The notes under the pieces were generated by a model. The model saw nothing but the letters and a program-made list of their open reading frames with translations, searched no databases and was not told the DNA's origin. From the NCBI GenBank assembly GCA_905233385.1, contig CAJOEH010000022.1, positions 846-64,845 of the forward strand: 64,000 bases of DNA, given 5' to 3'. How positions within the stretch are numbered: the first letter of the stretch is position 1; the number at the start of each line of letters is the position of its first letter. Of this stretch, positions 46,720-63,252 are shown piece after piece. Origin of the DNA: an uncultured Oscillospiraceae bacterium (lineage in GTDB: Bacteria; Bacillota; Clostridia; Oscillospirales; Oscillospiraceae). A program made the translations under genes and the position numbers.

Positions 46720-46782
46720 ACGCACGCAGACCGCAGGGGCAGATCGCTCTGCCCCTGCTTGTTTTCGTAAGGAGGTGCTTGT

Positions 46783-47874
46783 ATGGCACTGAAACAGGAA
46801 CGCAACTACGGCATTGATCTTTTGCGCATGGTCGCCATGTTTATGGTGACCGTCCTTCACGTGCTCGGACAGGGCGGCGTGATCGCGCGCGCATATGCCG
46901 GTACGGCCCAATACACGATCACGTGGTTTTTGGAGCTTGCGGCCTTCGGCGCCGTCAATCTCTATGCGCTGATCTCCGGCTACGTCGGCGTGAACGGCAG
47001 ATACAGAGTGAGCAATCTCGCCGTTCTGTGGCTTCAGGTCTTCCTCTATTCTTTCGGCATTGCCGTTGCGTTCGCGATCATCCGCCCGGATGTTATCAGC
47101 GGCTCCGGTCTGCTGGAATACGCTTTCCCCGTGATCACGAAAAAGTACTGGTATTTCTCCGGCTACGTATGTCTCTTCCTCTTTATTCCGTTGCTGAACG
47201 CAGGGATCAACGCACTGAGCAAGCAGGCTCTGCGCCGCATTATGGCAGCCATGTTCCTCGTTTTTTCAGTCGCCGCTTCCATTGCAAGAGAGGAATCGTA
47301 CGATACGTTCATCCTTGTCGCCGGATACAGCGGGCTGTGGCTGATGATCCTGTACGTCTTGGGCGGCTATATACGGAAATACGGCATGTGGGAAAAGATC
47401 CCGCAGCCCGCACTGCTTGCGATCTACTTTGGCTGTACGTTGCTCTCCTACGTATGCAAGCGTTTCATTCCCGGCGCGAAGTTCCCTGCCTCCTACATTT
47501 CTCCGCTGATCCTTCTTGGGAGCGTCGCCCTGCTGCTGTTCTTCTCACGGCTCAGATGCGGCAATATCACAAAGAAGCTCGTCGCGCTCTTTGCTCCTGC
47601 CGCCTTCGGTGTGTACATCATCCATGTCCATCCATTGATCTGGGAGCATATCATGGCGGATCGCTTCGCCTTTATCGCGACGATGCACCCGTTTGTGATG
47701 CGGCTGGTCGTCTTGCTGTGCGCATTCGCAATTTATCTGGTCTGCTCCCTCGTCGATCTGGTCCGCATTCAGCTTTTCAAGCTCCTGCGGATCAAGCAGG
47801 GCTGTCAGGCGTTGGAGAAAAAGCTCTTCAAAGAGGACGAGGAAGAAAAACAAAGGGTCGGGAATCGCAAATAA
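46783..47874 (+). CDS. Acyltransferase-3 (OafA-like) membrane protein
   Basis: RNYGIDLLRMVAMFMVTVLH, VNLYALISGY, YWYFSGY and FGVYIIH motifs. Confidence 0.9.
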   Translation: MALKQERNYGIDLLRMVAMFMVTVLHVLGQGGVIARAYAGTAQYTITWFLELAAFGAVNLYALISGYVGVNGRYRVSNLAVLWLQVFLYSFGIAVAFAIIRPDVISGSGLLEYAFPVITKKYWYFSGYVCLFLFIPLLNAGINALSKQALRRIMAAMFLVFSVAASIAREESYDTFILVAGYSGLWLMILYVLGGYIRKYGMWEKIPQPALLAIYFGCTLLSYVCKRFIPGAKFPASYISPLILLGSVALLLFFSRLRCGNITKKLVALFAPAAFGVYIIHVHPLIWEHIMADRFAFIATMHPFVMRLVVLLCAFAIYLVCSLVDLVRIQLFKLLRIKQGCQALEKKLFKEDEEEKQRVGNRK

Positions 47875-47980
47875 GCTGAGGAGAGTCGAACGCAAGCCGT
47901 CTCTGCGCGGCTCTTTTCGGTCCTTTTCGGCTTGTTGTCCTTGCCTTGCGTCAGCAAGGCTGCGTCCGCCTTCCCTGGCG
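47874..47980. repeat. Second AAGCTGAGGAGAG repeat copy plus palindromic tail
   Basis: Matches 16360-16391; CCTTGC..GCAAGG hairpin. Confidence 0.6.
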
Positions 47981-47983
47981 AAC

Positions 47984-48017
47984 AAAACGGAGACCGCGAA
48001 TACGCGGTCTCCGTTTT
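47984..48017. terminator. Bidirectional terminator
   Basis: AAAACGGAGACCGCG-aata-CGCGGTCTCCGTTTT. Confidence 0.85.
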
Positions 48018-48031
48018 GTTGATTTATCGTT

Positions 48032-49666
48032 TTAGTCTAAGAAATACTGTGCTCCGTCGACGATCACGACTGTATCGTTCTCGATAACAGTGAACTGCAC
48101 GCTGTTGCCCGGCAGGTTGCATTCCAGATCGTTCGTCGGCGTGCTGCCGGGCGGGATCAAAACGCCCTCCTCAAACTCCTGATCATCTTCAAAAGCGATC
48201 GCGGTCGTTGCGTCGTAGACGTCATAGAGCTCGCCGTCGTACATCGCCTGTCCGATCCATTTATAACCGTGGGCGTCCGTCTTTTCAGCAGTCGCGGTCG
48301 GCGGGTCGGCATAGCCGGAGATGTAAAGGTCCTCGTAGATCGTCCGGTAGATCCAGTCGCTGGCGCGCTGCAGATCGTAGACGAAGTAGACGTACTGCTC
48401 CTTGCCGAGCTCGCCCGCCCAGCAGTCCATGTGCTCCATCACGGCGGAGGACTCGACCGTATAGCGGTTCTGGACCGCCTCCAGCCCGATCCCGAGCAGT
48501 TCGTCCGCGCTCAGCGAGGTCGTGCACATGCCGAAGCAGGTGCGGATCAGCGCGGGATAGTCCGACATCGGCATCTGGCGGATCTTGTCCATCATGGCAA
48601 GGACCAGCTTTCGCTGCCGGCCGGCGCGGTTGATCTCGCTGTCAGAGCGGTCACGGGCATACCGGTAGACCGCCTGATAGCCGTTCATGTGGCTGTTGTA
48701 TTTCCACTGGTCGTCGCCCTCCAGCTCGATATCGACGCCGCCGAGCAGATCGACGATATCCTCAAGCTGGGTGATATCCACGGTGATATAGTCCTGGATA
48801 TTCAGCGCGAAGTTGTGGTTGACCGTGCGGACGGCGCCCTGCGGCCCGCCGAAATTGTAGGCGTAGGTGATCCTGGAATAGCTGCCCCACTGCGGCATCA
48901 TCACGTAGGAGTCGCGGCCGATGGAGATCAGCTTGATCTTCTGATGGACGCGGTCGATGGAGAGGATGATGTTGGCGTCCGAGGAGCCGTTGTCGTCCAG
49001 GCCGTACAACATGATATTCGTGATCTGCTCCGCGCCCTCGAGCAGGTAGCTCGGTCCCTCGGGATCGCCGGTGTGCATCTTCTCGTAGGCTTCGGGCGGG
49101 AGGTCCTTGTCCGTCAGGTTTTCAAATTCGATCGCCAGTCCCCTTGCCTGCTCGTCGAGGTCGTCGGGGTTTTCCGTATTCTCCGGCACGGCGTCGCGGA
49201 CGACCTCGCCGTTGTTGATCTTCACGACGTTCAGATCCTCGTCCTTCAGACTGCTGAAGATCTCGTCGTGGTTCAGGTCGCTGAAAATGTACTGATATAC
49301 GTACATCGCGCCGACGCAGATCAGCAGGACCACCAGCGCGATCAGGATCGCGCTGATCGCGAAGCCCTTCCGCTGTTTTTTGAGAAACAGCGTGACGATG
49401 CCGAGCACGAAGCCGATCCCGCCGAGGATCGCGCCGACGGTGATCATCACCTCAAAGATGCTGATGTCCGTGCCGGCAAGCGCCTTGCTGCGGTAGCGCA
49501 GGAAGCCGTAGACGGCCATCGCGGCGAGCAGCAGCAGCGCGGTAAACGCCAGCGCAAACGCGATCACGCCCAGTGTTTTACTGCGCTTGTTTTTCAGTGG
49601 AGGCGCGGTCTCCGTCTCCGCGGGAACCATATCTCTGTCTTTCTCGGGGAATTGATCGAAATCCAT
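48032..49666 (-). CDS. LCP (LytR-CpsA-Psr) family glycopolymer ligase
   Basis: NIMLYGLD..SDANII, SIGRDSYV, AYNFGG, YARDR and RAGRQRKL motifs; three N-terminal TM helices. Confidence 0.88.
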   Translation of the reverse strand: MDFDQFPEKDRDMVPAETETAPPLKNKRSKTLGVIAFALAFTALLLLAAMAVYGFLRYRSKALAGTDISIFEVMITVGAILGGIGFVLGIVTLFLKKQRKGFAISAILIALVVLLICVGAMYVYQYIFSDLNHDEIFSSLKDEDLNVVKINNGEVVRDAVPENTENPDDLDEQARGLAIEFENLTDKDLPPEAYEKMHTGDPEGPSYLLEGAEQITNIMLYGLDDNGSSDANIILSIDRVHQKIKLISIGRDSYVMMPQWGSYSRITYAYNFGGPQGAVRTVNHNFALNIQDYITVDITQLEDIVDLLGGVDIELEGDDQWKYNSHMNGYQAVYRYARDRSDSEINRAGRQRKLVLAMMDKIRQMPMSDYPALIRTCFGMCTTSLSADELLGIGLEAVQNRYTVESSAVMEHMDCWAGELGKEQYVYFVYDLQRASDWIYRTIYEDLYISGYADPPTATAEKTDAHGYKWIGQAMYDGELYDVYDATTAIAFEDDQEFEEGVLIPPGSTPTNDLECNLPGNSVQFTVIENDTVVIVDGAQYFLD

Positions 49667-49859
49667 TCTGTTTGCCCCTTTCGTGGGAAGTCGGGATTAT
49701 TCTAAGACGCAGTATAACACACTTTGTTCCAAAATTCAAGCGGAGGGGAAGAACCCCCTCCGCAAAGCGATGATAGATCACGGATTCTCAAGGCTGTTTG
49801 CGAGTGTTGGCGGATCGCCGCCCGTGAAAACCGACTTGGGCCCGACCCGCCTCGGCTTA

Positions 49860-50009
49860 TCAGCAGCCGCAGCCGTTATCGCAGCCGCACCCGCAGCCGT
49901 TGTTATTGCCGCACCCGCAGCCGCAGTTATTGCCGCAGCCGTTGCCGCAGCTGAACAACAGGATCAGGATGATGATCCACCAATAATTCCCGCAGTTGTT
50001 GCAACCCAT
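49860..50009 (-). CDS. 49-aa Cys/Gly/Asn-rich single-TM microprotein (probable sporulation protein)
   Basis: MGCNNCGNYWWIIILILLFSCGNGCGNNCGCGCGNNNGCGCGCDNGCGC followed by TGA-TAA; AGGAGG RBS at 50019-50024; 12 Cys. Confidence 0.85.
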   Translation of the reverse strand: MGCNNCGNYWWIIILILLFSCGNGCGNNCGCGCGNNNGCGCGCDNGCGC

Positions 50010-50106
50010 AATGAAGTACCTCCTGATAAGTTCTGAGCATCACGCTCATTCCATCTTATGACCGGCGGGAAATTTGGTGACAGTTCGGCGCTGCCGTCAT
50101 TTCATG

Positions 50107-50148
50107 AAAAACGGACTGAGAATCGTTCCTGATCCTCAGTCCGTTTTT
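50107..50148 (-). terminator. Terminator of the BMC operon
   Basis: AAAAACGGACTGAG...CTCAGTCCGTTTTT after tpiA. Confidence 0.8.
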
Positions 50149-50169
50149 CAATTCATCGGGTTTTTCCGT

Positions 50170-50919
50170 TCAGCCGTTGTAATTGACGACCTTCTCGAAT
50201 TTCTCCGCGACCAGGCTCGCGCCGCCGATCAGACCGCCGTCGATCTCCGGCTGGCTCATCAGCTCGCCCGCGTTCTTGTCGTTCATGCTGCCGCCGTAGA
50301 GGATGCGCACGTTCTCGGCGACGTAGCCAAACACGTCCCTGATCGCGCCGCGGATGGCGGCGATCGTGCGGTTGGCGTCGGCCGCCGTCGCGGTCATGCC
50401 CGTGCCGATCGCCCAGACGGGCTCATAGGCGATGACGCAGTCGGTGATCTGAGCAGAGGAAACGCCGCACAGGGCCGCCTTGGTCTGGAGGCAGACGACC
50501 TCGTTCGTGATGCCGGTCTGCTTCTGCTCCAGGCTCTCGCCGACGCAGATGATCGGCTTCAGGCCGTTTTCCAGCGCCTTCAGCACCTTCTTGTTGACGG
50601 TCTCGTCTGTCTCCGCGAAATACTGGCGGCGCTCGGAGTGGCCGAGAATGACGTACTCCACGCCCAGCTCCTTCAGGCTCGCGCAGTTCGCTTCGCCGGT
50701 GAACGCGCCCTTATCCGCGAAGTGGACGTTCTGCGCGCCGAGGTGCAGGTCCGTGCCCTTGATCTGGGCGGAGGCGGCGAACAGACTGACCGTCATCGGG
50801 CAAACGACGATCTCCACGTTCGTCTTCGGCTGAATCTTTTTGAGCTCCTGGATCAGCGCGACGGTCTCCGCGGGCGTCTCGTTCATCTTCCAGTTGCCCG
50901 CGATCATGGGTCTTCTCAT
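50170..50919 (-). CDS. tpiA: Triosephosphate isomerase
   Basis: AGNWKMN, GHSERR, AYEPVWAIGTG and GGASL motifs. Confidence 0.96.
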   Translation of the reverse strand: MRRPMIAGNWKMNETPAETVALIQELKKIQPKTNVEIVVCPMTVSLFAASAQIKGTDLHLGAQNVHFADKGAFTGEANCASLKELGVEYVILGHSERRQYFAETDETVNKKVLKALENGLKPIICVGESLEQKQTGITNEVVCLQTKAALCGVSSAQITDCVIAYEPVWAIGTGMTATAADANRTIAAIRGAIRDVFGYVAENVRILYGGSMNDKNAGELMSQPEIDGGLIGGASLVAEKFEKVVNYNG

Positions 50920-50934
50920 ACCGCTGCCCTCAGA

Positions 50935-51765
50935 TCAATACAGCTTCGGACGGATATCCACGTTGCCCGACGGGCAGGTCTTGCAGTTGCCGCAGTTGAC
51001 GCACTTGTGCTCGTCCTCGGTGACGCCGGAGACGATCTTGCCGGTGGAGCTTGCGCCGATGCGGTTCGCGCCGGCGTTGATCATGTTGACCGCGTCGGTG
51101 TAGGTACGCACGCCGCCGGAGGCCTTGACGCCGATGTCGGGGCCGACCGTCTCACGCATCAGGCGGACGTCTTCGACCGTCGCGCCGCCGGTGGAGAAGC
51201 CGGTGGAGGTCTTGACGAAGTGCGCGCCTGCCAGCTTGGAGACGGTGCACGCCTTGACCTTCTCTTCGTCGGTCAGCAGGCAGCATTCGATGATGACCTT
51301 GACCAGCGCGCGGCCGCGGACGGCGTTGACGACGCCCTCGATATCGCGCTTGACGAGCTGCCAGTCGCCGGACTTGACGGCGCCGATGTTGATGACCATG
51401 TCGATTTCGCGTGCGCCCTTGGTCGCCGCGTCGGAGGCCTCAAACGCCTTCGTTTCGGGCGTGCATGCGCCGAGCGGGAACGCGATGACGCAGCACGGCG
51501 TCACGCCGCTGCCCTCGAGCTGCTGCGCCACGTACTGGATATAGGACGGGTTGACGCAGACGCTGGCGGTGTGATACTTCTTCGCCTCGTCGCAGATCTT
51601 GCGGATGTCCGTGATGCTGGCTTCCGGCTTCAAAAACGTATGGTCGATGTATTTTGCCATGTCGGCAGGGCTTTTGCCGGCCGGCGCCGCGGCTCCGGGA
51701 GCGGCTGCGCCGTACTTGGAGCAGATCTCCTCCGTCACCTGGCGGATGATTTCATTGATATCCAT
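50935..51765 (-). CDS. deoC: Deoxyribose-phosphate aldolase with N-terminal encapsulation peptide and C-terminal Cys4 tail
   Basis: IDHT, EIDMVIN, FVKTSTG, GVKASGG and RIGASS; N-term [14 protein letters not shown]; C-term [11 protein letters not shown]. Confidence 0.93.
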
Positions 51766-51788
51766 GAACAGTGTTCCTTTCGTAAGTT

Positions 51789-52541
51789 TTACTTTCTTGC
51801 TTCTTCCGCGATCTTCGCGGTCGCGGTCAGTCCGAGGCGGACCGCGCCGGCCGCAAGCAGTTCCTCCGCCTGCGCCAGCGTCTTGATGCCGCCGTCGATC
51901 TTGATGCCGACGTTCCTTCCGAGGATATCGTAGGCAAACCGGACGTCCTCCACGCGCGCGCCGTGTCCGCTGAGCATGTTCTGGATCTTGACGAAGTCCA
52001 CGCCGCTGCTGCGCAGCATGGTCAGAACCGCCTGCTTCTCCTCGAACGTGTAGAGGGAATGCTCAAAGACCGCCTTGATCTTTGCTTTGCCGCAGGTAAA
52101 GCGCACCAGCTCCTCCAGCTCCCGCTGCGCCTCGTCCAGACGGCCGGACTTAATCGCGAGCGCATTGATCGCGACGTCGATCTCGGTCGCGCCGTTCGCC
52201 ATGCACTCGCGCAGCTCGGCGAGCTTCGCCGCCTGCGACATGCAGCCGTGCGGGAAGCCGATCGCGGTGCCGACCGCGACGGGACTGCCGAGCAGGGCGT
52301 CGCGCGCCGCCGCGACGTAGTAAGGCGCAACGCAGACCGCCGCGACGGAGTACTTGCGCGCCACGGCGCACTCCGCTTTGATCTTGTCCAGCGTCGTGTC
52401 GGGATTGAGCAGAGAATGCTCCAGATGAGCGACCACGTCCGCGCCGGTCACGATCCCCGCGAGGGGCGCCGGATTCGCGTCTGCGTGGAAGTACGCCAGC
52501 ACCTGACGCTCTACTTCTTTTCTGATTGCTTCTACATCCAT
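51789..52541 (-). CDS. Divergent DeoC-like class I aldolase with encapsulation peptide
   Basis: LEHS, EIDVAIN, FVKIQNM and GIKIDGG; N-term [18 protein letters not shown]. Confidence 0.85.
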
Positions 52542-52829
52542 TTAGTGATACTCCCTGACCTCGCCGTCGAACGTAAGGTGGTCGATGACGCCGCAGATCG
52601 TGATGTCGCCGATGCAGTGACGGCCGAGCAGAATGCTTGCCGCGCCGCCGTCGCAGGCGACGACCACGGTATCTCCGATACCGGCGTCCGCCACGTCGAA
52701 GGCGATCGCCTCTTCTCCGGTCAGATTGCCCGCTTCATCGAGGTAGTCGATGATCATGAGCTTCTGCCCGTCGAATCCGGCGTCCTTGATCGTGGAAACG
52801 ACGTTTCCGACGACTCTTGCCAGCTTCAT
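52542..52829 (-). CDS. BMC-P pentamer (EutN/CcmL family)
   Basis: [18 protein letters not shown] and GVID motifs. Confidence 0.92.
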
Positions 52830-53101
52830 CCCATTCTCGGGAGAATGCCCTCGACGTCATCGTGCGGGGACGGGATCACGTGGCAGCCGTACAGCTCGCC
52901 GACGCGCTTTGCAGCCGTCGCGCCCGCGTCGACCGCGGCCTTGACCGCGCCGACGTCGCCGCGTACCATGACGGTGACGAGGCCGCTGCCGATCTGCTCT
53001 TTGCCGATCAGATGAACGTCTGCTGCCTTGACCATGGCGTCTGCCGCTTCAATGGAGCCGATCAGACCGCGGGTCTCGACCATTCCGAGTGCTAGTTTCA
53101 T
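52826..53101 (-). CDS. BMC-H hexamer shell protein
   Basis: [34 protein letters not shown] and VIPSPH motifs. Confidence 0.95.
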
Positions 53102-53116
53102 AATAATACCTCCAAA

Positions 53117-53398
53117 TTATTGATTTTCCGGTTGTATTTCTACGTTGTAGGAGTCGATAAAGCCGACGATGGCCGCATCGGCGGGGACCAGCTTCCTGCG
53201 GAAGATCCTCCCTGCCTCTCTGGAGCCGATCATGTAGACAATATCGCCCTTGCCTGCCTGTCGGGTGGAATCCGCCGCTACGATCATTTTTGTTTTTTTG
53301 CCTTTTTCGATCTTATGCACCACGAGGAGCGGAATATCTTCCATGCCCGGCTCCTTCACGGTGGCAACGACCGTTCCGACGACCTCCCCGATATACAT
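53117..53398 (-). CDS. BMC-P pentamer (EutN/CcmL family)
   Basis: [17 protein letters not shown] and AAIVGFID motifs. Confidence 0.9.
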
Positions 53399-53402
53399 GG
53401 GA

Positions 53403-53664
53403 TCAGCCGATCGTGGGCAGGATGCCCTCGACGTCGTCGTGCGGGGACGGGATCACGTGGCAGCCGTACAGCTCGCCGACGCGCTTCGCAGCCGTCGCGG
53501 ACGGTGACGAGGCCGCTGCCGATCTGGGTCTTGCCGATGAGATGAACGTTTGCCGCCTTGACCATGGCGTCGGCCGCCTCAATGGCGCCGATGAGGCCGC
53601 GGGTTTCCACCATACCGAGTGCTAATTTCATTTTCGTTGTCTCCTTCTTTTTTGTTGTTGCCAT
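53403..53664 (-). pseudogene. BMC-H copy with a 47-bp frameshifting deletion
   Basis: Matches its paralogs except that codons for [16 protein letters not shown] (47 nt) are missing at about 53500. Confidence 0.8.
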
Positions 53665-53676
53665 AGCGTTTACCTT

Positions 53677-53952
53677 TTAGCCCATCGTCGGCAGGATGCC
53701 TTCGACGTCGTCGTGCGGGGACGGGATCACGTGGCAGCCGTACAGCTCGCCGACGCGCTTCGCAGCCGTCGCGCCCGCGTCGACCGCAGCCTTGACCGCG
53801 CCGACGTCGCCGCGCACCATGACGGTGACGAGGCCGCTGCCGATCTGGGTCTTGCCGATGAGGCGGACGTTTGCTGCCTTGACCATCGCATCGGCCGCTT
53901 CGATCGCGCCGATGAGGCCGCGGGTTTCAACCATTCCTAATGCTTCTTTCAT
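53677..53952 (-). CDS. BMC-H hexamer shell protein
   Basis: Same BMC-H motifs; near-identical DNA to the other two copies. Confidence 0.95.
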
Positions 53953-54019
53953 GTTTTGTTATCCTCCGTTAAAAATTTATAATAATTTTTCAAAAGCAAC
54001 GAGTGAATTGCGCGCGGGC

Positions 54020-55426
54020 TCAGATGATGCGGAAGTCGCCCTTCAGCACGCAGCGTCTTGCGCGGGTAAAGGACTTCGCGCTGGTCAGGCCCTCGCCGGT
54101 CGGGGTGGCGATCGTCAGGGTGGTGTAGCCCTCACCGCCGAAGCCGAGGCCGGAGTAGGAAGGCGCGTTCTTGACGAAGATCGTCGTATTCATACGCTTC
54201 GCCGCGCGGGACATATTGTGGATGTTGGTCGAATGGATCAGCGCGGAGTGCTGGCAGCCGTGCTCGGCGCGGAACGCCTCCGAAAGCGCCTCGTCGAAGT
54301 TCGCCACGCGGACGCAGCCGAGGACCGGCATCAGCATCTCGACCTCGACGAAGGGATGGAAGCGGTCGACCTCCGCGATGACCAAGACGGGCTCGCCGGT
54401 GAAGGACACGCCGCTCTCGCGCAGGATGTAGGTCGCGTCGTGACCGACGAACTTGCGGTTGATGACGTACTTGCCGTCCTTCTGGATCAGCACGGTGCGA
54501 ACGATCTTGTCGATGTCCTCGCCGTAGACGCGGAAGGCGCCGTTGCGCTGCATCTGGCTCATGAGCTCGTCCGCGATGGAGGCGACCATGAAGCACTCCT
54601 TCTCCGCGACGCAGAGGATGTTGTTCTCAAAGCTCGCGCCGTCGACGATCTTCTTCGCGGCGTCCGGGATGTTCGCCGTCTCGTCGACGATGACCGGCGG
54701 ATTGCCGGGGCCTGCCGCGACGCACTTCTTGCCGGACTTCATCGCCACCGCGACGACCGCTTCGCCGCCGGTGACCGCCAGCATCTTGATCGCCTTGTGG
54801 CTCATCAGGACCGCCGAGGTCTCCATCGTCGGCTCCTTCGGCGCGGTGATCAGGCCGTTCGGGCCGCCCGCGTCGACGATCGCCTGGTTGAGAAGCTCCA
54901 TCGCCCGCTGCGAGGCGCGCTTCGCCGCAGGATGGGGGTTGTAGACCACGGCATTGCCCGCCGCGATCATGCTGATGGAGTTGTTGATGACCGTCGCGGT
55001 CGGGTTGGTCGACGGGGTGATCGAGCCGATGACGCCGTAGGGCGCCGTCTCGACGAGGGTCAGGCCGTCGTCGCCGCTGTAGGCGGTCGGGTGCAGGTCT
55101 TCCACACCGGGGGTCTTGTTCGCGGCGAGCAGGTTCTTCGCGATCTTGTGCTGGACCTTGCCGTAGCCGGTCTCGTCGTGCGCCAGGATCGCAAGCTCCT
55201 CGGCGTGCGCCCTTGCGCAGACGCGCATCGCATCGATCAGCTTGCCGCGGTCTTCCAGCGTCATTTCCGCCAGACGCTGCTGGGCGCGGATCGCGGTCTC
55301 GATCGCATCGTTGATGTCGTCAAACAGGCACTGCGCCGCGCCGCCGGCAGAACCGCCGCCGCCGCGCTCTAAACTGTTTTTGGTCTCTTCCGCGATTTTC
55401 CGTATCTGTTCTTTTGTCAACGCCAT
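54020..55426 (-). CDS. Acylating aldehyde dehydrogenase (EutE/PduP-like) with encapsulation peptide
   Basis: PSTNPT, TGGEAVV, NNILCVAEKE (catalytic Cys) and GGEGYTT motifs; N-terminal amphipathic helix plus Gly linker. Confidence 0.95.
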   Translation of the reverse strand: MALTKEQIRKIAEETKNSLERGGGGSAGGAAQCLFDDINDAIETAIRAQQRLAEMTLEDRGKLIDAMRVCARAHAEELAILAHDETGYGKVQHKIAKNLLAANKTPGVEDLHPTAYSGDDGLTLVETAPYGVIGSITPSTNPTATVINNSISMIAAGNAVVYNPHPAAKRASQRAMELLNQAIVDAGGPNGLITAPKEPTMETSAVLMSHKAIKMLAVTGGEAVVAVAMKSGKKCVAAGPGNPPVIVDETANIPDAAKKIVDGASFENNILCVAEKECFMVASIADELMSQMQRNGAFRVYGEDIDKIVRTVLIQKDGKYVINRKFVGHDATYILRESGVSFTGEPVLVIAEVDRFHPFVEVEMLMPVLGCVRVANFDEALSEAFRAEHGCQHSALIHSTNIHNMSRAAKRMNTTIFVKNAPSYSGLGFGGEGYTTLTIATPTGEGLTSAKSFTRARRCVLKGDFRII

Positions 55427-55435
55427 ACGCTATCC

Positions 55436-55741
55436 TCAACTTTCTTTGTTGAATTTTTCAAAGATCCTCTTGCCGTTCACGTCGACGTGGTCGATGATGG
55501 CAATGATGGTCTGATCGACGGGCTTGTTCTCCGTGACGATCGTCTGACGGGACGAGCTGCCGCTGACGGTCATAACGACCTCGCCCTCGCCTGCGCCGAC
55601 GGCGTCGATAGCGACGACCGGCGCGCCCTTCTCCTGCCAGGTCTCAATGTCGATGGGCTTGACGATCAGCAGCTTCAGGCCGTAGAGCTTCTCCGCCTTG
55701 TTGGTGCTGACGACCGTTCCTTTTACGATGCCTAAATTCAT
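55436..55741 (-). CDS. BMC-P pentamer (EutN/CcmL family)
   Basis: GIVKGTVVST, AIDAVGAGEGE, SGSSSR and AIID motifs. Confidence 0.94.
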   Translation of the reverse strand: MNLGIVKGTVVSTNKAEKLYGLKLLIVKPIDIETWQEKGAPVVAIDAVGAGEGEVVMTVSGSSSRQTIVTENKPVDQTIIAIIDHVDVNGKRIFEKFNKES

Positions 55742-56430
55742 ACCGTTTCTCCTTCATACTGCACCGCGACGTCGGACGCGCGCAGGGCGTCGCGCGCCGC
55801 CGGTGTAATGATCGCGCCCACGCGGGCGGTGATGGTCCTGTCCTTCGTCTGCGCCGCGGCGAGGACGTCCGCTTCGGTGATCAGCGTCGCGCCGATCCGG
55901 GCGGCGGCGTCGCCGGTAAAGTACGGGCAGACGGCGACGTTCATCTGGCGCAGGGTGTCGATTGAAGAGGCGACGCCCTCCAGGAACGTGTTGCGCTTGA
56001 ATTTCGGCGGCTCAAAGTCGAGATACAGCCGCACATCCTTCCGCCACAGCACGCTGCGGACGATCAGGTAGGAAAGGAAGTCGCTGTCCTCTCCCCGCGC
56101 GATCTGCCCCAGAAGCTCCAGCCGCGGCCCGACTAAAACGACCGTTTTCGCCGCGGTAATCTTCGCGAGCAGTTCCGGCTGTCCGAGATGATCCGCAAAG
56201 AGCAACCCCTCGTCCTGCACGCCGGGCTGCTGCACGAAGCTGAGGAAGGTGTAACCCTCGCCGAACTGCGTTTGGAGCAGTTCCCTCAGCTCCTTCGGGT
56301 AGGCGACCGGCGCAGCCAGCAGCACGAGCACCTGCTCGGGATGCTGCGCCTCGCGCTCGAGCCGCGCGATCCGGCGCACGACCTCCGCGACGATCAGATC
56401 TATTAATTTGTGTAAAAGCTCTGTATCCAT
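55738..56430 (-). CDS. PduM/flavoprotein-like BMC accessory protein
   Basis: N-terminal encapsulation peptide LIDLIVAEVVRRI; C-terminal LITEADV...IITPAARD motif. Confidence 0.65.
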   Translation of the reverse strand: MDTELLHKLIDLIVAEVVRRIARLEREAQHPEQVLVLLAAPVAYPKELRELLQTQFGEGYTFLSFVQQPGVQDEGLLFADHLGQPELLAKITAAKTVVLVGPRLELLGQIARGEDSDFLSYLIVRSVLWRKDVRLYLDFEPPKFKRNTFLEGVASSIDTLRQMNVAVCPYFTGDAAARIGATLITEADVLAAAQTKDRTITARVGAIITPAARDALRASDVAVQYEGETV

Positions 56431-56454
56431 CTCTTACACAACCTTAACTCGATG

Positions 56455-57093
56455 TTATTTCAATACTTCCATCATTGTGCTGCCGCTCATGGCGACGGCA
56501 TTCGCCTCGTCGGTGTCGACGTGGACCTCCATATCGTGCCCGTCGCCCGCGCGGACGATGACGTTTTCAAAGACCACCGCGCGGTCGCCCTCGCTCCTGA
56601 GGCGGACGGTCTGACCGTCGCGCAGGCCGAACAGCGCCGCCTGCGCCGCGGACAGATGCAGATGCCGCGCCGCCACGATCACGCCCTCGGGAATGTCGAT
56701 CTGCCCCATCGGGCCGATGAGACTGCATCCCGGCGTACCGGCGGTCTTGCCGGACATGCGGACCGGCGGGCGGATGCCCAGCGAGAACGAGTCGGTGAAG
56801 GCGATCTCCACCTGTGTCGCCTTGCGCTCCGGTCCGAGGACGCGGACGCGCTCCAACTTCCCCTTCGGACCGACGACCGTCACCTGCTCCACGCATGCGA
56901 ACTGTCCCGGCTGAGAAAGGTCGCGGAATTTCTGTAACTGATAGCCCGCGCCGAACAGCCGCTCCACGTCCGCGCGGGACAGATGCACGTGCCGCGCCGA
57001 CGCCGCCACGGGAACGAAGATCCGTCCCGTTTCGCGGAAGATCCGCTCGGCGACCGCAAGCTGCACCGGCCGCTGAATGCTCGCTTTATCCAT
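56455..57093 (-). CDS. pduL: PduL-type phosphotransacylase
   Basis: SARHVHLS, LSQPGQFA, RVLGPER, VIVAARHLH and HVDTDEANA motifs. Confidence 0.95.
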   Translation of the reverse strand: MDKASIQRPVQLAVAERIFRETGRIFVPVAASARHVHLSRADVERLFGAGYQLQKFRDLSQPGQFACVEQVTVVGPKGKLERVRVLGPERKATQVEIAFTDSFSLGIRPPVRMSGKTAGTPGCSLIGPMGQIDIPEGVIVAARHLHLSAAQAALFGLRDGQTVRLRSEGDRAVVFENVIVRAGDGHDMEVHVDTDEANAVAMSGSTMMEVLK

Positions 57094-58282
57094 TCGCGTT
57101 CACCTTTTTCATGACGATGCCTTCAAAATAGGTCTTCGCCAAAATCGTTTTCACGTCGTCCACCGTCGGACGGACAATATTCGTCAGCGTCGCCGTATCG
57201 GCGAGGGCGTGCTCCGCCAGCACGTCGATATCGTCCATGCTGAACTTCGTCTCGCACAGCGGCGGGATCTTCACGTCCGCGCAGAGCTTCCGCACCGCCT
57301 CGATCGCGAGCCGGGAAGCGGCGTCGACGGAGAGGCTGTCGATCTTCTCTCCCATCGCCTGCGCGACGTCCGCGAGCCGTCCCATGCAGTAGGGGCGGTT
57401 GTACTCCAGCACGCGCGGCAGCATGATCGCGTTGGCAAGGCCGTGCGGGATATTGTAGAAGCCGCCGAGCTGGTGGGCGATGCCGTGCACCAGGCCCAGG
57501 CCGGCGTTCGAGAACGACAGGCCCGCCATGTATTCCGCCCAGCACATATCCGTACGGGCGTCCATATTCGACCCGTCGCGCACCGCGGCGCGCAGCGACT
57601 TGCTCACAAGGCGGATCGACTCCAGCGCAAGCGCGTCCGTATAGGGCGTGGGAACACTGCAGATGTACGCTTCGATCGCATGCGTCAGCGCGTCGATGCC
57701 CGTCGCCGCCGTCAGGGAGGGCGGCATGCCGACCATCAGCATCGGGTCGTCCAGCGCCAGATACGTCAGGCAGTTCGGGTCAACCATCAGCATCTTGGAT
57801 TTCGCCTTTTCATCCGTGACGACGTATGCCGCCGTGCATTCCGAGCCGGTGCCCGCCGTCGTGTTGACCGCGATGATCGGCGAGCCGGGCTTTTTGGATT
57901 TGTTCACGCCGTTGTAGTCTTCGATCTTGCCGCCGTTCGCCGACAGGATGCTGACCGCCTTCGCCACGTCGATCGACGAGCCGCCGCCGATGGCGATCAA
58001 CGCGCCGCAGCCGTTCTTCGTAAAGAACTCCAGCGCCTGATAGACGATCCGCGTCGTCGGATTCGGCTCCACGCCGTCAAACACCGCGTAGTTGATCCCC
58101 GCCTGGTCGAGCACGGCGATGACCTTGCCGGCGGTGCCGATCTTGACCAGGCCCTTGTCGGTGATCACGAGGACCTTTTGTGCGTTCAGATCGCGCAGAA
58201 AACGCGGGATCTGCAGGATGCCGTCGCGCCCGATCAGGGTGTGCCGCGGCTGATAAAGTTCTACCGTTTCGATCTGTTCCAT
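57086..58282 (-). CDS. Iron-containing alcohol dehydrogenase
   Basis: GGGSSIDVAK, TTAGTGSE, DALTHAIE, HGIAH and HGLAN motifs; start 58282 after GGAGAG. Confidence 0.94.
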   Translation of the reverse strand: MEQIETVELYQPRHTLIGRDGILQIPRFLRDLNAQKVLVITDKGLVKIGTAGKVIAVLDQAGINYAVFDGVEPNPTTRIVYQALEFFTKNGCGALIAIGGGSSIDVAKAVSILSANGGKIEDYNGVNKSKKPGSPIIAVNTTAGTGSECTAAYVVTDEKAKSKMLMVDPNCLTYLALDDPMLMVGMPPSLTAATGIDALTHAIEAYICSVPTPYTDALALESIRLVSKSLRAAVRDGSNMDARTDMCWAEYMAGLSFSNAGLGLVHGIAHQLGGFYNIPHGLANAIMLPRVLEYNRPYCMGRLADVAQAMGEKIDSLSVDAASRLAIEAVRKLCADVKIPPLCETKFSMDDIDVLAEHALADTATLTNIVRPTVDDVKTILAKTYFEGIVMKKVNANG

Positions 58283-58300
58283 CGTTTCGCTCTCCATTGT

Positions 58301-58324
58301 AAAACGCTCAAAATCGCTCATTTT
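58301..58324 (-). promoter_or_regulatory. Tandem 10-bp direct-repeat operator upstream of the BMC genes
   Basis: Minus strand AAAATGAGCG-ATTTTGAGCG; the same motif occurs upstream of deoR. Confidence 0.7.
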
Positions 58325-58480
58325 GCCGAGCCTTTCCGTGTGGTATCATCTTCCCACAATTTCCATGCAATGTCAACAGCGCATTTCGCGGTTTTTATCA
58401 TTTTGTGAGTTCTGACAGTTTGATCGTCCGCGCTTTGTATATTTTGATCAGGAAAAAAGCGGCGGCAGGCGCAGACCGAA

Positions 58481-59266
58481 TCATTCAAGCGGGAGCAGCG
58501 TGCAGGGAATGCCCTGTTTTGCATAGAAATTCACAAATTCCTGCGGCATGTTCTGCGTGGAGATGACGCGGCACGCCTTCTCCGGCGGGAACATCGTCGC
58601 GAACGCGCGGCGGCCGAACTTCGCGCTGTCCAGCAGCATGTACATCCGGCGCGTCATGCGCGAAAGCTGGGTGTAAAGCGCCGTGCGGTTCTTGTCCTGC
58701 ACGGTGTAGCCGCGCTCCAGATCCACGCCCTCGACCGTCAGGAAGACCTTGTCGAAGAAATAACCGCGCAGGGTGTGGTTGACGTCCGGGTCGAGCGTCT
58801 CGATATAGTTCTTGCCGGTGCGGACGTCGCCGCCGAGGAGGGTCACGGAGACGTTCGGGCACTCCGCCAGCTCCAGGACCGCCGTCACGGAGGTCGTTAC
58901 CACGGTCAGCCGCTCGACGTCGCGCAGCTGCGCCGCGAAAATGTTGCAGGTTTTGCCCGCGCCGATGAAGATGGATTCGCCGGAGCGCACCTGCGCCGCC
59001 GCTTCCTTCGCGATCAGCAGCTTTTCCTTGTCGATCTCGTCGCCGATCTCGGTGCCGTTGACGTAGCGGCTGTGATCCGGGCGTTTTTCCGGCAGCTTCA
59101 GGCCGCCGTGCGTGCGCTCCGCCAGCCCCTTGCCCTGGATCTCGTCAAAATCGCGGCGCGTCGTGGCGACGGAGGCGCCGGTCAGTTCGCAGATCTCCTG
59201 CATGGAGATCGCGCCGCGCTCGTGCAGCAGGTCCAAAATCTTCTTTTCACGTTCCCAGTACTTCAT
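58481..59266 (-). CDS. DeoR/GlpR-family regulator
   Basis: HTH SVATTRRDF..ERTHGG; IFIGAGKT; VTTSV; LLDSAKFG. Confidence 0.94.
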   Translation of the reverse strand: MKYWEREKKILDLLHERGAISMQEICELTGASVATTRRDFDEIQGKGLAERTHGGLKLPEKRPDHSRYVNGTEIGDEIDKEKLLIAKEAAAQVRSGESIFIGAGKTCNIFAAQLRDVERLTVVTTSVTAVLELAECPNVSVTLLGGDVRTGKNYIETLDPDVNHTLRGYFFDKVFLTVEGVDLERGYTVQDKNRTALYTQLSRMTRRMYMLLDSAKFGRRAFATMFPPEKACRVISTQNMPQEFVNFYAKQGIPCTLLPLE

Positions 59267-59284
59267 TCGTTCATTCTCCTTTCA

Positions 59285-59338
59285 AACTCGCTCATTATCG
59301 CTCATTTGAAGTATAGCATGCAGCGGCATTTCTGTCAA
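59285..59338 (-). promoter_or_regulatory. deoR promoter with overlapping tandem operator
   Basis: TTGACA-N17-TATACT (59338-59310); CAAATGAGCG-ATAATGAGCG at the start site. Confidence 0.78.
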
Positions 59339-59374
59339 GCACATTTGCCTAATTAAGACAAATACTCTTCATCC

Positions 59375-59724
59375 GTGTCATTGCGAGCAGCGGAGCTGCG
59401 TGGGTGCGCAGCCGTTGGCGGCTCTGCCGCCTTACGGATGCGGCCTACCCCCTGCGGGTACAATCCGTGCCTGCCGTTGCGGGACACTTTTCCATAATAC
59501 GAAACCGCGTAGGGAGGCATGCCCATATGCCTCCGCGATTACCAATGCCTCATAATGCAAAATCGGAGGCGTCAGGGGACGCCTCCCTACGGCAGTTTTC
59601 CACCCTTCGGCACAGATACCATACCTGTGACGGACAGATTGCCACGCCTGCCTCCGACAGGTTCGCAATGACAAGGACGGAAGCGCATTGCGCATTGCGC
59701 ATTGAGCATTGCGCATTGAGCATT
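59375..59724. repeat. Composite repeat: TGTC element, GTAG REP doublet (59509-59590) and six CATTGNG heptamers
   Basis: Matches copies at 24857, 31325 and 62944. Confidence 0.8.
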
Positions 59725-59729
59725 TCACA

Positions 59730-60515
59730 TTACCCGAACACCTCGTCGATCGTCCCGAAGCGGTAGCCCATCGCCTCCCAGCGGGTCAGCAGTTCGTCCA
59801 GGATCGCGGCGTTGGTCTTGGACGTGCTGTGCAGGAGGACGATCGCGCCGTTGTGGATGCGCGGCAGGAGCTTCGAGAAGGCCGTCTCCCGCGACGGCTG
59901 TTCTTCCCTGATCCAGTCGACGTAGGCGAGGCTCCAGAAGACCGTCCGGTATCCCATCGCCTGCGCCATGCGCAGGTTTTCCTCGGAGTAGATCCCCTGC
60001 GGCGGGCGATAGTATTTCCGCATCTCCTGTCCGGTGATCTCCGTATAGAGCCGCTCGAGGGACTCCAATTCCTCGCGGAAGGTCGCCTCATCCCCGATCT
60101 TCGACATGTCCCAATGGTGATAGGTGTGATTGCCGACGATATGACCTTCCGCCGTCATCCGTCTGACCAGCTCTGGATTCTGCTCCATGTAATTGCCCAC
60201 CAGGAAGAACGCCGCCCTGACGCCGTGCGCCTGCAACGTGTCCAAAATCTGCGCCGTGCAGCCGTTTTCATAGCCCGCGTCGAAGGTCAGATAGATCACC
60301 TTCTCGTCCGTATCGCCGAGATAGGCTGCGTCGTACTCCCGCAGCGCCGCGCTGTCGGCGTTGCCGACCGGCGGCTCCCCTTCCGTGCGGAAGCTCAGTC
60401 CCCACGAGCCCGCTGCCAGCGCGTTATCCTGCTTCACCGCGCCGACCGCCGTCAGGCCGAGCAGGACGGCGACGATCAACAAAAGCGGAAGATTCCTCCG
60501 AAACGACCTGCGCAT
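59730..60515 (-). CDS. pdaA: Spore cortex muramic delta-lactam deacetylase (PdaA-like)
   Basis: IYLTFDAGYENG, GNHTYHH, YRPPQG, WSLAYVDW and LLHSTS motifs; start 60515 after GAGGTG. Confidence 0.85.
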   Translation of the reverse strand: MRRSFRRNLPLLLIVAVLLGLTAVGAVKQDNALAAGSWGLSFRTEGEPPVGNADSAALREYDAAYLGDTDEKVIYLTFDAGYENGCTAQILDTLQAHGVRAAFFLVGNYMEQNPELVRRMTAEGHIVGNHTYHHWDMSKIGDEATFREELESLERLYTEITGQEMRKYYRPPQGIYSEENLRMAQAMGYRTVFWSLAYVDWIREEQPSRETAFSKLLPRIHNGAIVLLHSTSKTNAAILDELLTRWEAMGYRFGTIDEVFG

Positions 60516-60532
60516 ACGCTTCACCTCGGTCA

Positions 60533-60561
60533 AGCCTATGCGCCGCCGGATCAAAACATGC
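60533..60561 (-). promoter_or_regulatory. Sporulation-sigma (sigmaE-like) promoter of pdaA
   Basis: GCATGTT-N14-CATAGGCT, same geometry as the spoIIID promoter. Confidence 0.55.
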
Positions 60562-60590
60562 ATAAAATTTCGTCTGTCAAGTTTTTTCTC

Positions 60591-60619
60591 TTGACAAGCA
60601 GGGTAAACTCATGTATAAT
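60591..60619 (+). promoter_or_regulatory. Consensus sigmaA promoter of ylxM-ffh
   Basis: TTGACA-N17-TATAAT. Confidence 0.85.
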
Positions 60620-60642
60620 GAGCGGGCATTGGGGGTGTCGAA

Positions 60643-60993
60643 ATGAAACAGGAAGCTTTCAAAATGTCGCTGCTCCTCGATTATTACGGCGCCCTGCTGA
60701 CGGAAAAGCAGAAGACCTACTTCGATCTTTACTACAATCAGGACCTTTCGCTCAGCGAGATCGCCGAGCAGGAGGGCATTTCCCGTCAGGGCGTCCACGA
60801 CGCCATCACGCGCACCGAGGCGATCCTCTCCGACATGGAGCGGGCGACCGGCTGCGTGGCAAGAGACCGGCAGCTCCGCTCCGCCGTGCGGGAGATCGCT
60901 TCCGCGGCGCAGGCGCTGCTGCGCCATGAAGATCCGTCCGTGCGGGAAAATGCCGCGCGCATTCTGTCCGCCGTTTCTTCCGTAAAGGAGTAA
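60643..60993 (+). CDS. ylxM: YlxM SRP-associated protein
   Basis: LLDYYGALLTEKQ..DLSLSEIAE..ISRQGVHD. Confidence 0.93.
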   Translation: MKQEAFKMSLLLDYYGALLTEKQKTYFDLYYNQDLSLSEIAEQEGISRQGVHDAITRTEAILSDMERATGCVARDRQLRSAVREIASAAQALLRHEDPSVRENAARILSAVSSVKE

Positions 60994-60996
60994 GCT

Positions 60997-62343
<1,347 letters not shown>

Positions 62344-62412
62344 TTCCGTAATCATTGGACTCAAGCAGTTCGAGGATATATTATTTCAGAAATCTTTTTG
62401 GAGGTAAATCTC

Positions 62413-62652
62413 ATGGTTAAGATCAGACTCAGAAGAATGGGCGCCAAGAAGGCTCCTTACTACCGCATCGTTGTCGCCGACTCCCGCAGCCCCCGCGACG
62501 GCCGCTGCATCGAAGAGATCGGCACCTACAATCCCCTGACCGAGCCGGCTACCGTCGAAGTCGACGCCGAGAAGGCAGCGCAGTGGATCAAGAACGGCGC
62601 ACAGCCGACCGACACCGTTAAGGCTCTCCTGAAAAAGGCGAACGTCCTTTAA
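62413..62652 (+). CDS. rpsP: 30S ribosomal protein S16
   Basis: [25 protein letters not shown]. Confidence 0.97.
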
Positions 62653-62670
62653 TCCGAGAGGAGCAAAACG

Positions 62671-62901
62671 ATGAAGGAACTCTTGCTCTACGTGGCGAAA
62701 CAGCTTGTCGATCACCCGGATGCAGTCACGGTCACAGAGAGAGAGGACGCAGGCACGACAGTCCTGGAGCTGCGCGTTTCCCCCGAGGATATGGGGAAAG
62801 TCATCGGCAGACAGGGCCGGATCGCCAAGGAAATCCGCACCGTTATCAAGACCGTCGCCCAGCGCGACGGCAAACGCGTCACTGTCGATATTGTCGACTG
62901 A
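62671..62901 (+). CDS. khpA: KH-domain RNA-binding protein KhpA
   Basis: DMGKVIGRQGRIAKEIR; follows rpsP. Confidence 0.94.
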   Translation: MKELLLYVAKQLVDHPDAVTVTEREDAGTTVLELRVSPEDMGKVIGRQGRIAKEIRTVIKTVAQRDGKRVTVDIVD

Positions 62902-62908
62902 TACTGCC

Positions 62909-62942
62909 AAGAAAGAGGACCGCAACCGCGGTCCTCTTTCTT
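62909..62942 (+). terminator. Terminator after khpA
   Basis: AAGAAAGAGGACCGC-aacc-GCGGTCCTCTTTCTT. Confidence 0.85.
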
Positions 62943-62943
62943 G

Positions 62944-63174
62944 TTGCGCAATGCGCAATGCACTTCCGTCCTTGTCATTGCGAGCCGATGAAATCGGCGT
63001 GGCAATCCGTGCCTCTCGACGCGGGAGGTTTTCCAAAACTCACAAATCCCATCGTCCTGTCATTGCGAGGGTGCGTAGCACCCGTGGCAATCTGTCCGTC
63101 TCGATGACGGACGTTTTCCAAAACTCGCAAATCCCATCATCCTGTCATTGCCCGACTTGCTCGGGCAATGACAG
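62944..63174. repeat. Three tandem TGTC-tagged units plus heptamers
   Basis: TGTCATTGCGAG..GTGGCAATC twice, then TGTCATTGCCCG..CGGGCAATGACAG. Confidence 0.8.
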
Positions 63175-63200
63175 ATTCGGCAGTGCGTGATCATTATGAA

Positions 63201-63242: not shown

Positions 63243-63252
63243 GTATTGGAGT

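Follow-up and report, generated by a model that had tools for sequence, protein, structure and literature searches.

A slightly reduced SPU4-type microcompartment operon, probably based on deoxyribose-5-phosphate, in a gut Clostridium

Bacterial microcompartments (BMCs) of the sugar phosphate utilization (SPU) class count among the most widespread organelles of bacteria, but no in vivo study of any of them exists. The present work concerns an SPU operon on contig CAJOEH010000022.1 of an uncultured Oscillospiraceae bacterium, within a stretch of 64,000 nucleotides (nt; contig positions 846 to 64,845) that we call the window. As originally defined (Axen 2014; Sutter 2021), the class has an RpiB-type ribose-5-phosphate isomerase (RPI, pfam02502) in the locus. 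Dwyer et al. 2024 (PMC11585597), cited throughout, like the survey PMC8217296, from the portions of text and supplement available, proposed that the universal SPU core is deoxyribose-phosphate aldolase (DERA, the deoC product) plus aldehyde dehydrogenase (AldDH), not DERA plus RpiB. An earlier annotation of the window from its letters alone (hereafter the sequence-only reading) had taken DeoC plus RpiB as defining the class and thus followed a definition that has since been revised. In SPU6, the RPI is catalytically inactive yet binds DERA, and DERA cleaves deoxyribose-5-phosphate (Dr5P) in vitro (PMC11585597). The SPU4 subtype is catalogued with 33 loci, mostly from Bacillales and Clostridiales, encoding AldDH, a pfam01791 aldolase, a pfam02502 isomerase, a phosphotransacylase (PTAC) and a triosephosphate isomerase (TPI) (PMC8217296, Supplementary Data 2), and its organisms are known from the gut (PMC8156839). 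Its shell is described as a triplet of pentameric BMC-P and two similar hexameric BMC-H proteins without a consistent BMC-T; a PduS-associated BMC-T(s) occurs in 14 of the 33 loci, and any BMC-T is absent from 19 (PMC8217296). About half of the SPU4 TPIs carry an encapsulation peptide, and the subtype has an "eut_hyp"-type protein, a relative of the flavoprotein family whose N-terminus has an amphipathic extension of 30-40 residues (PMC8217296). Of 29 curated SPU4 loci, 18 have RPI, and SPU5 loci have none, while alcohol dehydrogenase (ADH) is present in some SPU4 loci (PMC11585597).

The locus studied here is a slightly reduced member of SPU4, an already catalogued subtype that is common in gut Clostridia, and not a new kind of compartment. 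In its full form our interpretation is probable: a single operon for an SPU4-subtype BMC in an Oscillospiraceae-like gut Clostridium, a chromosomal copy, inherited vertically, from which two accessory genes have been lost, and a metabolosome based on Dr5P, most likely for degrading the sugar present in DNA. The operon comprises 14 co-directional minus-strand genes (50170-59266, including one broken BMC-H gene), assigned with Pfam and NCBIfam profiles. They overlap or have short spacers, and third-position GC is 0.67-0.92 throughout, as expected of real genes in a window of about 60% GC. In order of transcription, with flanking signals, the features are:

59310-59338, minus strand: promoter-like site upstream of deoR (TTGACA, 17 nt, TGnTATACT; 11 of 12 consensus positions matched, with the TG of an extended -10), a consensus match only
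58481-59266, minus strand: DeoR/GlpR-family regulator (HTH_DeoR PF08220, E 3e-15; DeoRC sugar-phosphate sensor PF00455, E 2e-33)
57086-58321, minus strand: iron-containing alcohol dehydrogenase (Fe-ADH), no clear encapsulation peptide
56455-57093, minus strand: PduL-type PTAC (PF06130, E 1e-74, domain from residue 28)
55738-56430, minus strand: protein of 230 amino acids (aa) with a UbiX/EpiD/phosphopantothenoylcysteine (PPC)-decarboxylase flavoprotein fold and an N-terminal amphipathic helix, from an AlphaFold2 model and Foldseek
55436-55741, minus strand: BMC-P (vertex pentamer), first of three (PF03319, E 1.5e-27)
54020-55426, minus strand: CoA-acylating AldDH of the EutE/PduP type (NF011927, 640 bits)
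54002-54017, no strand: junction at which PduS and a PduT-type BMC-T are missing relative to syntenic relatives, from alignment with locus L090
53677-53952, minus strand: BMC-H (hexamer) copy 1, intact (full-length PF00936, E 7e-29)
53403-53631, minus strand: BMC-H copy 2, disrupted, from alignment with copy 1 and the orthologue in locus L007
53117-53398, minus strand: BMC-P, second of three (PF03319, E 8e-19)
52826-53101, minus strand: BMC-H copy 3, intact (PF00936, E 5e-29)
52542-52829, minus strand: BMC-P, third of three (PF03319, E 1e-19)
51789-52541, minus strand: DeoC-like paralogue, DeoCL (TIGR00126, 156 bits)
50935-51765, minus strand: DeoC, that is, DERA (TIGR00126, 284 bits)
50170-50919, minus strand: TpiA, triosephosphate isomerase (pfam00121; PF00121, E 6.5e-91 from residue 4), no N-terminal extension
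49740-49763, minus strand: terminator-like hairpin about 400 nt downstream of tpiA (10-bp stem, 8 GC pairs, T-rich tail), a pattern match only

Nearly all of the genes named in the sequence-only reading were recovered at the same positions on the minus strand; one of its BMC-H genes is broken, however, and its "PduM-like" label for the 230-aa protein fails. Its shell-gene order (three BMC-H, then two further BMC-P) also needs correction: the order is H, H, P, H, P, and only two BMC-H genes are intact.

The case for SPU4 rests on the inventory as a whole. The locus has a shell-associated DERA (pfam01791) with an extension absent from free DERAs and a CoA-acylating AldDH, which are the components of the redefined core; it also has a PduL-type PTAC with an encapsulation-like N-terminus, a TPI and a Firmicutes host. 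Its shell, made of three PF03319 BMC-P and two intact BMC-H with no BMC-T, fits the SPU4 description. The RpiB of the original definition is missing. A tblastn search with the SPU RpiB of locus L126 (PF02502, E 8e-56) gave no match with E below 0.7 either in the window or in the twin-aldolase loci, whereas it did detect RpiB in six further SPU loci. The absences listed in the sequence-only reading are genuine (no RpiB in window or locus, no BMC-T in the window, no kinase or transporter in the operon), and so is its clostridial host, an Oscillospiraceae relative whose closest locus is L007. What does not survive is the conclusion that this gene set departs from described SPU systems, as every departure it listed is a documented SPU4 trait in the available portions of PMC8217296 and PMC11585597. 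The locus thereby comes close to mapping exactly onto a described subtype, the outcome that the sequence-only reading had named as removing novelty: SPU4 is matched item by item, provisionally so for the 230-aa protein, and an identical inventory within the catalogue is unconfirmed.

The 230-aa protein is the least straightforward of these items. It has no match in Pfam, and the AlphaFold2 model (26 homologues, pLDDT 77) consists of a 27-residue N-terminal helix followed by a Rossmann-like domain whose top Foldseek matches in the PDB are almost all UbiX, EpiD/MrsD or phosphopantothenoylcysteine decarboxylase, i.e. the PF02441 flavoprotein fold. On the strength of this predicted fold and of its position, we regard it as the putative "eut_hyp-like" component of SPU4. 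Identity with PduM was considered and set aside in favor of the flavoprotein fold, the TIGR04493 score of 15.9 bits (E 0.009) being below the cut-off of 50. The protein is found in nearly all related loci. Its C-terminal mini-domain (LVTExDV...AIITPxARD) also stands alone in other SPU-type loci: in L126 (9263-10156) it is apparently fused to the C-terminus of the PTAC open reading frame (ORF), and in four short contigs (L131, L133, L134 and L136) it lies directly upstream of RpiB. This recurrence suggests that the mini-domain may be a shared interaction module.

An amphipathic N-terminal helix followed by a low-complexity linker is clear on DeoC, AldDH, PduL and the 230-aa protein, and weaker on DeoCL; neither ADH nor TpiA has an N-terminal helix of this kind. 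In AldDH the N-terminus MALTKEQIRKIAEETKNSLERGGGGSAGG forms a helix (hydrophobic moment 0.66) followed by a Gly-rich linker, i.e. a predicted encapsulation peptide. The corresponding moments are 0.75 for PduL residues 15-29 and 0.63 for the DeoC helix, which leads into an Ala/Pro/Gly linker; in the 230-aa protein the amphipathic helix spans residues 1-29. The sequence-only reading had assigned such N-termini to both aldolases, AldDH and the 230-aa protein, and was right, although the feature is weaker on DeoCL; it had passed over the one on PduL. Lacking a targeting peptide, TpiA is probably cytosolic.

The arrangement of the locus is far from unique. DeoCL has more than 300 relatives in the protein collection, and 80 loci came from a pattern scan in which each GTDB species was represented by one genome. 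Their hosts are Oscillospiraceae (with many Faecousia, among them the cultured F. intestinalis CLA-AA-H192), Christensenellaceae such as Christensenella hongkongensis HKU16, Synergistaceae, Pseudoflavonifractor and termite-gut Treponema. A metagenome scan that took the 230-aa protein as its seed gave 13 further loci of the twin-aldolase form on contigs of at least 5 kb. Contig look-ups and tblastn revealed a conserved order, namely (DeoR, ADH), PTAC, 230-aa protein, BMC-P, AldDH, PduS, PduT, one or two BMC-H, BMC-P, BMC-H, BMC-P, DeoCL, DeoC and TPI, with DeoR in the same position in Oscillospiraceae loci. The twin-aldolase, TpiA-bearing and RpiB-less arrangement recurs in the same order in about 100 loci, and no RpiB-like ORF was found in the twin-aldolase loci compared. 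Being recurrent across so large a lineage, twin aldolases without RpiB are the norm and not a peculiarity of the window. In fact, the RpiB-less form dominates in gut Oscillospiraceae and Christensenellaceae. The DeoC of one twin-aldolase locus is indexed in 2768 assembly-collection blocks, so the organism or the operon must be very common in sequenced samples. Since the form exists in cultured strains (CLA-AA-H192, HKU16), the Dr5P hypothesis is directly testable.

Where the window differs from its relatives, it does so by loss. The nearest loci are in metagenome-assembled genomes (MAGs) of Oscillospiraceae/Faecousia, with 85-90% nt identity and syntenic flanks; the closest, L007, from a goat-duodenum Oscillospiraceae MAG, is 89.5% identical over the whole operon. 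In the span from AldDH to DeoCL, 51 of 53 loci (the window counted) carry PduS and PduT, and the two without them are the window and L007. In relatives the pair (PduS, 437 aa; PduT-type BMC-T, 181 aa) lies between AldDH and the first BMC-H, and alignment with L090 shows a clean 1.85-kb gap at window positions 54017/54002, L090 12412-14256 having no counterpart. No PduS, PduT, BMC-T or satellite shell gene was found elsewhere in the 64-kb window, the sole match being the unrelated Complex1_51K subunit of a hydrogenase. The flanks are syntenic with those of relatives in which the pair is retained, with ffh, ylxM and a deacetylase gene on one side and LytR, an acyltransferase, an NCS2 permease and nrdR on the opposite side. 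Pairwise comparison of 12 genes with L007 gave ratios of nonsynonymous to synonymous substitution (dN/dS) of 0.00-0.20 at dS values of 0.18-0.53. As L007 also lacks PduS/PduT, these low ratios indicate that the operon has been kept functional by selection since the deletion. The deletion leaves ADH as the only NAD+ recycler encoded in the operon. Such a natural minimal version, with a BMC-H/BMC-P shell and no PduS/PduT and still under selection, helps decide the role of the electron-export module and offers a compact template for engineering.

The second lesion concerns BMC-H copy 2, which has a 47-nt internal deletion (junction 53499/53500) relative to copy 1 and to its L007 orthologue. The deletion shifts the frame after residue ~44, past the GLVTV motif, leaving the natural stop out of frame; the product matches profile positions 1-41 of 75 only, and the listed ORF 53356-53664 is an out-of-frame read-through. 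The gap may be a true deletion or an assembly fault in tandem copies that are nearly identical; the two intact copies are about 87-89% identical in DNA. One BMC-H is fragmentary also in L018, L025, L033 and L089, which come from several unrelated assemblies, so that the recurrent disruption reflects either decay by paralogue recombination or a recurrent assembly problem. A third BMC-H is dispensable in any case, because 27 of 52 other loci compared have only two (28 of 53 with the window).

The two aldolases deserve separate comment. DeoC is about 60% identical to solved, active bacterial DERAs over the full barrel (residues 35-251, E 2.5e-79), with extra segments at residues 1-34 and ~252-276, the first making an extension of ~34 aa relative to the solved enzymes. 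DeoCL is more distant, its best DERA match in the PDB having an E of 1e-41 and its core starting at residue 37 after an extension of ~36 aa. It nevertheless scores above the curated DERA cut-off of TIGR00126, and its D122, K185 and K214 (D102, K167 and K201 of the Escherichia coli enzyme) are invariant in an alignment of 17 members with 56-88% identity. The canonical motifs of the substrate and phosphate pocket (KTSTG, KASGGVR, GxSS) are absent from the DeoCL family, where they are invariantly altered (KTSTG to KIQN[MV], KASGGVR to KIDGG[IV]K, GASS to GLTAT). With a dN/dS of 0.05-0.12, DeoCL is as strongly constrained as DeoC. The N-terminal helices of the two proteins are visibly homologous, which suggests duplication of a DERA that already bore a targeting helix. 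DeoCL is probably an encapsulated class I aldolase, predicted to be active, whose specificity or partner role differs from that of DeoC; a further hypothesis gives it the place that the DERA-binding RpiB holds in other SPU types. For comparison, no SPU4 locus with RpiB was recovered, the metagenome scan having given RpiB in other SPU types only.

DeoC has a further peculiarity at its C-terminus (window 50935-51020), where the sequence HKC(V/I)NCG(N/A)CKxxCP(S/T)G...Y forms a ferredoxin-like cysteine tail. The ferredoxin spacing CxxCxxCxxxCP is present in 76 of 84 DeoC orthologues; the window, L007, L008 and L010 lack one residue of it. The tail has a weak match to Pfam Fer4_10, and a close homologue has a precomputed PF00037 match; the motif suggests that it may bind a metal or an iron-sulfur (Fe-S) cluster. 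In L126, an RpiB-containing SPU locus of another type, DERA (6423-7406) has no tail, but a C...CAGCGMC motif lies in its N-terminal extension. Among the best 150 DERA representatives from a library of 1.8 billion proteins, 23 have C-x(5-8)-[DE]CxxCGxC some 20-30 residues before the DERA domain, all within N-terminal extensions of ~70 aa or more, mostly above 150 aa. The available portions of PMC11585597 make no mention of cysteines or of a C-terminal tail on DERA, and neither there nor in those of PMC8217296 are two DERA paralogues per locus explicitly described. Two lineage-wide features thus appear to go undescribed in this literature: the diverged paralogue of DeoC, whose catalytic residues are intact, and the cysteine tail of DeoC itself. 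They bear on the assembly of the SPU core and on the question of whether that core is redox-linked. One may speculate, as a tentative proposal that stands at rather long odds, that SPU4 contains a distinct twin-aldolase sub-lineage of at least 80 species in which a catalytically competent-looking DeoCL replaces inactive RpiB as the partner of DERA, while the DERA tail binds an Fe-S cluster and couples to the PduS/PduT conduit. If this were true, the window would be a natural knock-out, with the conduit deleted, the cysteine motif shortened and the operon still under selection.

From these components a pathway can be proposed in outline. Dr5P, made in the cytosol from deoxynucleosides, would diffuse through the BMC-H pores into a shell built of BMC-H hexamers and three BMC-P pentamer paralogues only. 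There DERA would release glyceraldehyde 3-phosphate (G3P) together with acetaldehyde, encapsulated AldDH would convert acetaldehyde, CoA and NAD+ to acetyl-CoA and NADH, and encapsulated PduL would regenerate CoA with release of acetyl-phosphate, from which an acetate kinase encoded elsewhere could make ATP. Fe-ADH would reduce a second acetaldehyde to ethanol and so restore NAD+, and TpiA, outside or loosely associated with the shell, would equilibrate G3P with dihydroxyacetone phosphate. The DeoR-family regulator presumably senses a sugar phosphate. In relatives, the PduS-type NADH dehydrogenase and the PduT-type Fe-S BMC-T would provide a second route of electron export, termed "MNdh-T(s)" in recent literature (PMC11585597, in its available portions, and PMC12747264). 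The sequence-only reading had likewise pictured an SPU-class metabolosome with a core of DERA and AldDH/PduL/ADH, and here we concur, Dr5P being the best-supported substrate and degradation the direction of flux that we infer.

Several points weigh against this interpretation. The SPU4 assignment was made by comparing gene inventory with the published description, whereas BMC Caller assigns subtypes from shell-protein "colour" classes; moreover, that the catalogued RPI-less SPU4 loci are of the twin-aldolase form is unconfirmed. The 230-aa protein gave nothing with TIGR02536 (eut_hyp) at E 0.01 or better, so that its link to SPU4 depends on predicted fold and position, and one of the three BMC-H genes is broken. 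The case for Dr5P comes from one enzyme family, since SPU4 compartments have been neither observed nor assayed in any organism. A Pfam search of 38 flanking ORFs found no phosphopentomutase, nucleoside phosphorylase, deoxyribokinase or nucleoside transporter in the 64-kb window; the presumed supply route must therefore be encoded elsewhere. Finally, the extra polyol and sugar genes of Christensenellaceae loci suggest an extended substrate range. In these loci (L001:10759-15880, L051, L052, L061, L062 and L065) a SorC-family regulator, mostly together with two Zn-dependent dehydrogenases, separates DeoCL from DeoC; in several, TPI is preceded by an FGGY kinase or by an unknown protein of 386 aa, and in L001 the upstream region adds an ABC sugar transporter, an FGGY kinase and a class II aldolase. 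A related arrangement occurs in L114 and L115 (6514-14945), both from human-gut metagenomes, with the same 230-aa protein, PduS/PduT and H-P-H-P shell order. This operon encodes a class II aldolase, a 367-aa protein without a Pfam match and a very diverged 275-aa DeoCL-like protein, and neither AldDH nor PTAC was detected in it; it may represent a different BMC type on the same shell.

The Christensenellaceae genes could be taken to mean that another or an additional sugar phosphate is processed, DeoCL being the true or a second signature aldolase and Dr5P one substrate among several, or not even the principal one. DeoCL retains the triad of catalytic residues, has invariant changes beside the Schiff-base lysine and in the phosphate-binding loops, and is under purifying selection as strong as that on DeoC; in addition, the L115 operon combines a class II aldolase with only a very diverged DeoCL-like gene. 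On the other hand, a canonical DERA with ~60% identity to characterised enzymes always adjoins DeoCL or lies near it, DeoCL itself scores above the curated DERA cut-off, and nothing in the window names an alternative substrate. DeoR regulators of the Bacillus subtilis type also belong to the SorC family, so the Christensenellaceae regulator fits Dr5P equally well. We consider a different or additional substrate unlikely, if somewhat less so than the two explanations that follow.

That the locus is a new SPU variant outside the described subtypes, with twin encapsulated DERAs plus TpiA and without RpiB, kinase, transporter or BMC-T, strikes us as doubtful. RpiB and BMC-T are indeed absent, both DERA-family genes are N-terminally extended, and the SPU literature, in the portions available, is not explicit on DERA paralogues; yet SPU4 as catalogued already lacks a consistent BMC-T and often RPI (18 of 29 loci have it), the architecture is common to about 100 loci, including lineages catalogued as SPU4 (Clostridiales R-7, PMC8217296), and the differences specific to the window are losses only (PduS/PduT and one BMC-H). 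Those losses raise the question of whether the locus is a decaying remnant that no longer builds a working organelle, which would account for three lesions at once: the 1.85-kb PduS/PduT deletion, the 47-nt BMC-H frameshift and the loss of one residue in CxxCxxCxxxCP. However, all other genes are intact, with the low dN/dS against L007 found for 12 genes at substantial dS; more than half of the other loci manage with two BMC-H, and 19 of the 33 catalogued SPU4 loci have no BMC-T; and the shortened cysteine motif occurs also in L010, which keeps PduS/PduT. Decay is, accordingly, very improbable, and a working, reduced SPU4 operon remains the interpretation that we favor.

Some features of the operon and its surroundings may be mentioned briefly. 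The Fe-ADH stop overlaps the PduL start, the annotated starts of Fe-ADH differing among orthologues (396-414 aa), and only 15 nt separate the DeoC stop from TpiA. The hairpin at 49740-49763 is the probable end of the transcription unit, although the region has no excess of terminator-like sites over shuffles; between it and the tpiA stop, ~400 nt (49770-50170) are apparently non-coding, with only a low-complexity, spurious plus-strand ORF. An Rfam search of 44000-64000 gave no riboswitch or other RNA family, and a search for operator-like repeats in the deoR-adh and upstream intergenic regions gave short, weak repeats only, which are not interpretable. The nearest transporter is an NCS2 (xanthine/uracil) nucleobase permease (45145-46719), ~3.4 kb beyond tpiA and syntenic in relatives; in this 524-aa protein the Pfam match is split in two, and the transporter domain seems to be interrupted by a soluble insert of ~100 aa. 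Elsewhere the window holds housekeeping genes: a HydABC-type [FeFe] hydrogenase, ATP synthase, thyA, folA, sulfur amino-acid genes, nrdR, ffh, rpsP and phosphofructokinase. The multimeric hydrogenase cluster (1207-8968) encodes a large subunit with Fe_hyd_lg_C and Fe_hyd_SSU domains, a NuoF-like subunit, a second HydA-like sensory protein, histidine-kinase-like ATPase domains and a DRTGG protein; a hydrogenase of this type is a cytosolic outlet for electrons from NADH and ferredoxin.

The operon thus adds one SPU4 locus to those known, and its place among described systems can be summarized as follows. With SPU4 it shares the Firmicutes host, putative N-terminal encapsulation peptides on DERA and AldDH, PTAC, TPI, a putatively flavoprotein-related protein, the three BMC-P and a pair of similar BMC-H. 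It differs in having a diverged second DERA where the aldolase module begins, in lacking the RpiB that the SPU4 consensus lists, and in a TPI without an encapsulation peptide, the deletion of PduS/PduT and the frameshift in one of three BMC-H. Non-compartmentalised deo and dra operons (E. coli deoCABD; B. subtilis dra-nupC-pdp) also have DERA at the committed step and a regulator from a sugar-phosphate-sensing family. They carry nucleoside phosphorylases, phosphopentomutase and a transporter beside deoC and have no shell, AldDH or PduL, the reverse of what is seen in the window. The EUT2 and PDU cores, composed of AldDH, PduL, Fe-ADH and BMC-H/P, resemble the locus in acetaldehyde handling, cofactor recycling, a PduL-type PTAC and EutM-like BMC-H; their signature enzyme, however, is a B12-dependent lyase instead of a sugar-phosphate aldolase, and the window has no BMC-T of the EutL/PduB type. 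SPU6 from Chloroflexi, the only SPU with purified enzymes, has the same DERA signature (D/K/K and an N-terminal extension), AldDH and BMC-P triplet; its own features are an inactive RPI that complexes DERA 1:1, a BMC-T(dp), an AldDH whose encapsulation peptide is C-terminal, and the lack of PTAC (PMC11585597). It is without the DeoCL, PduL, TPI and ADH that are all present in the window. The SPU-type loci of Hodarchaeales (Asgard archaea) share the DERA plus AldDH core, Dr5P as the proposed entry and a DERA-associated flavoprotein module (bioRxiv 10.1101/2025.11.08.687404, PMC12747264). There the flavoprotein is fused to DERA, whereas the window encodes a separate 230-aa protein, and the archaeal host, a citrate synthase-PTAC fusion and a DNA-binding tail on one BMC-P set these loci further apart; their PduS-like NADH dehydrogenase and BMC-T(s) are proposed to export electrons, the very module that the window has lost (PMC12747264).

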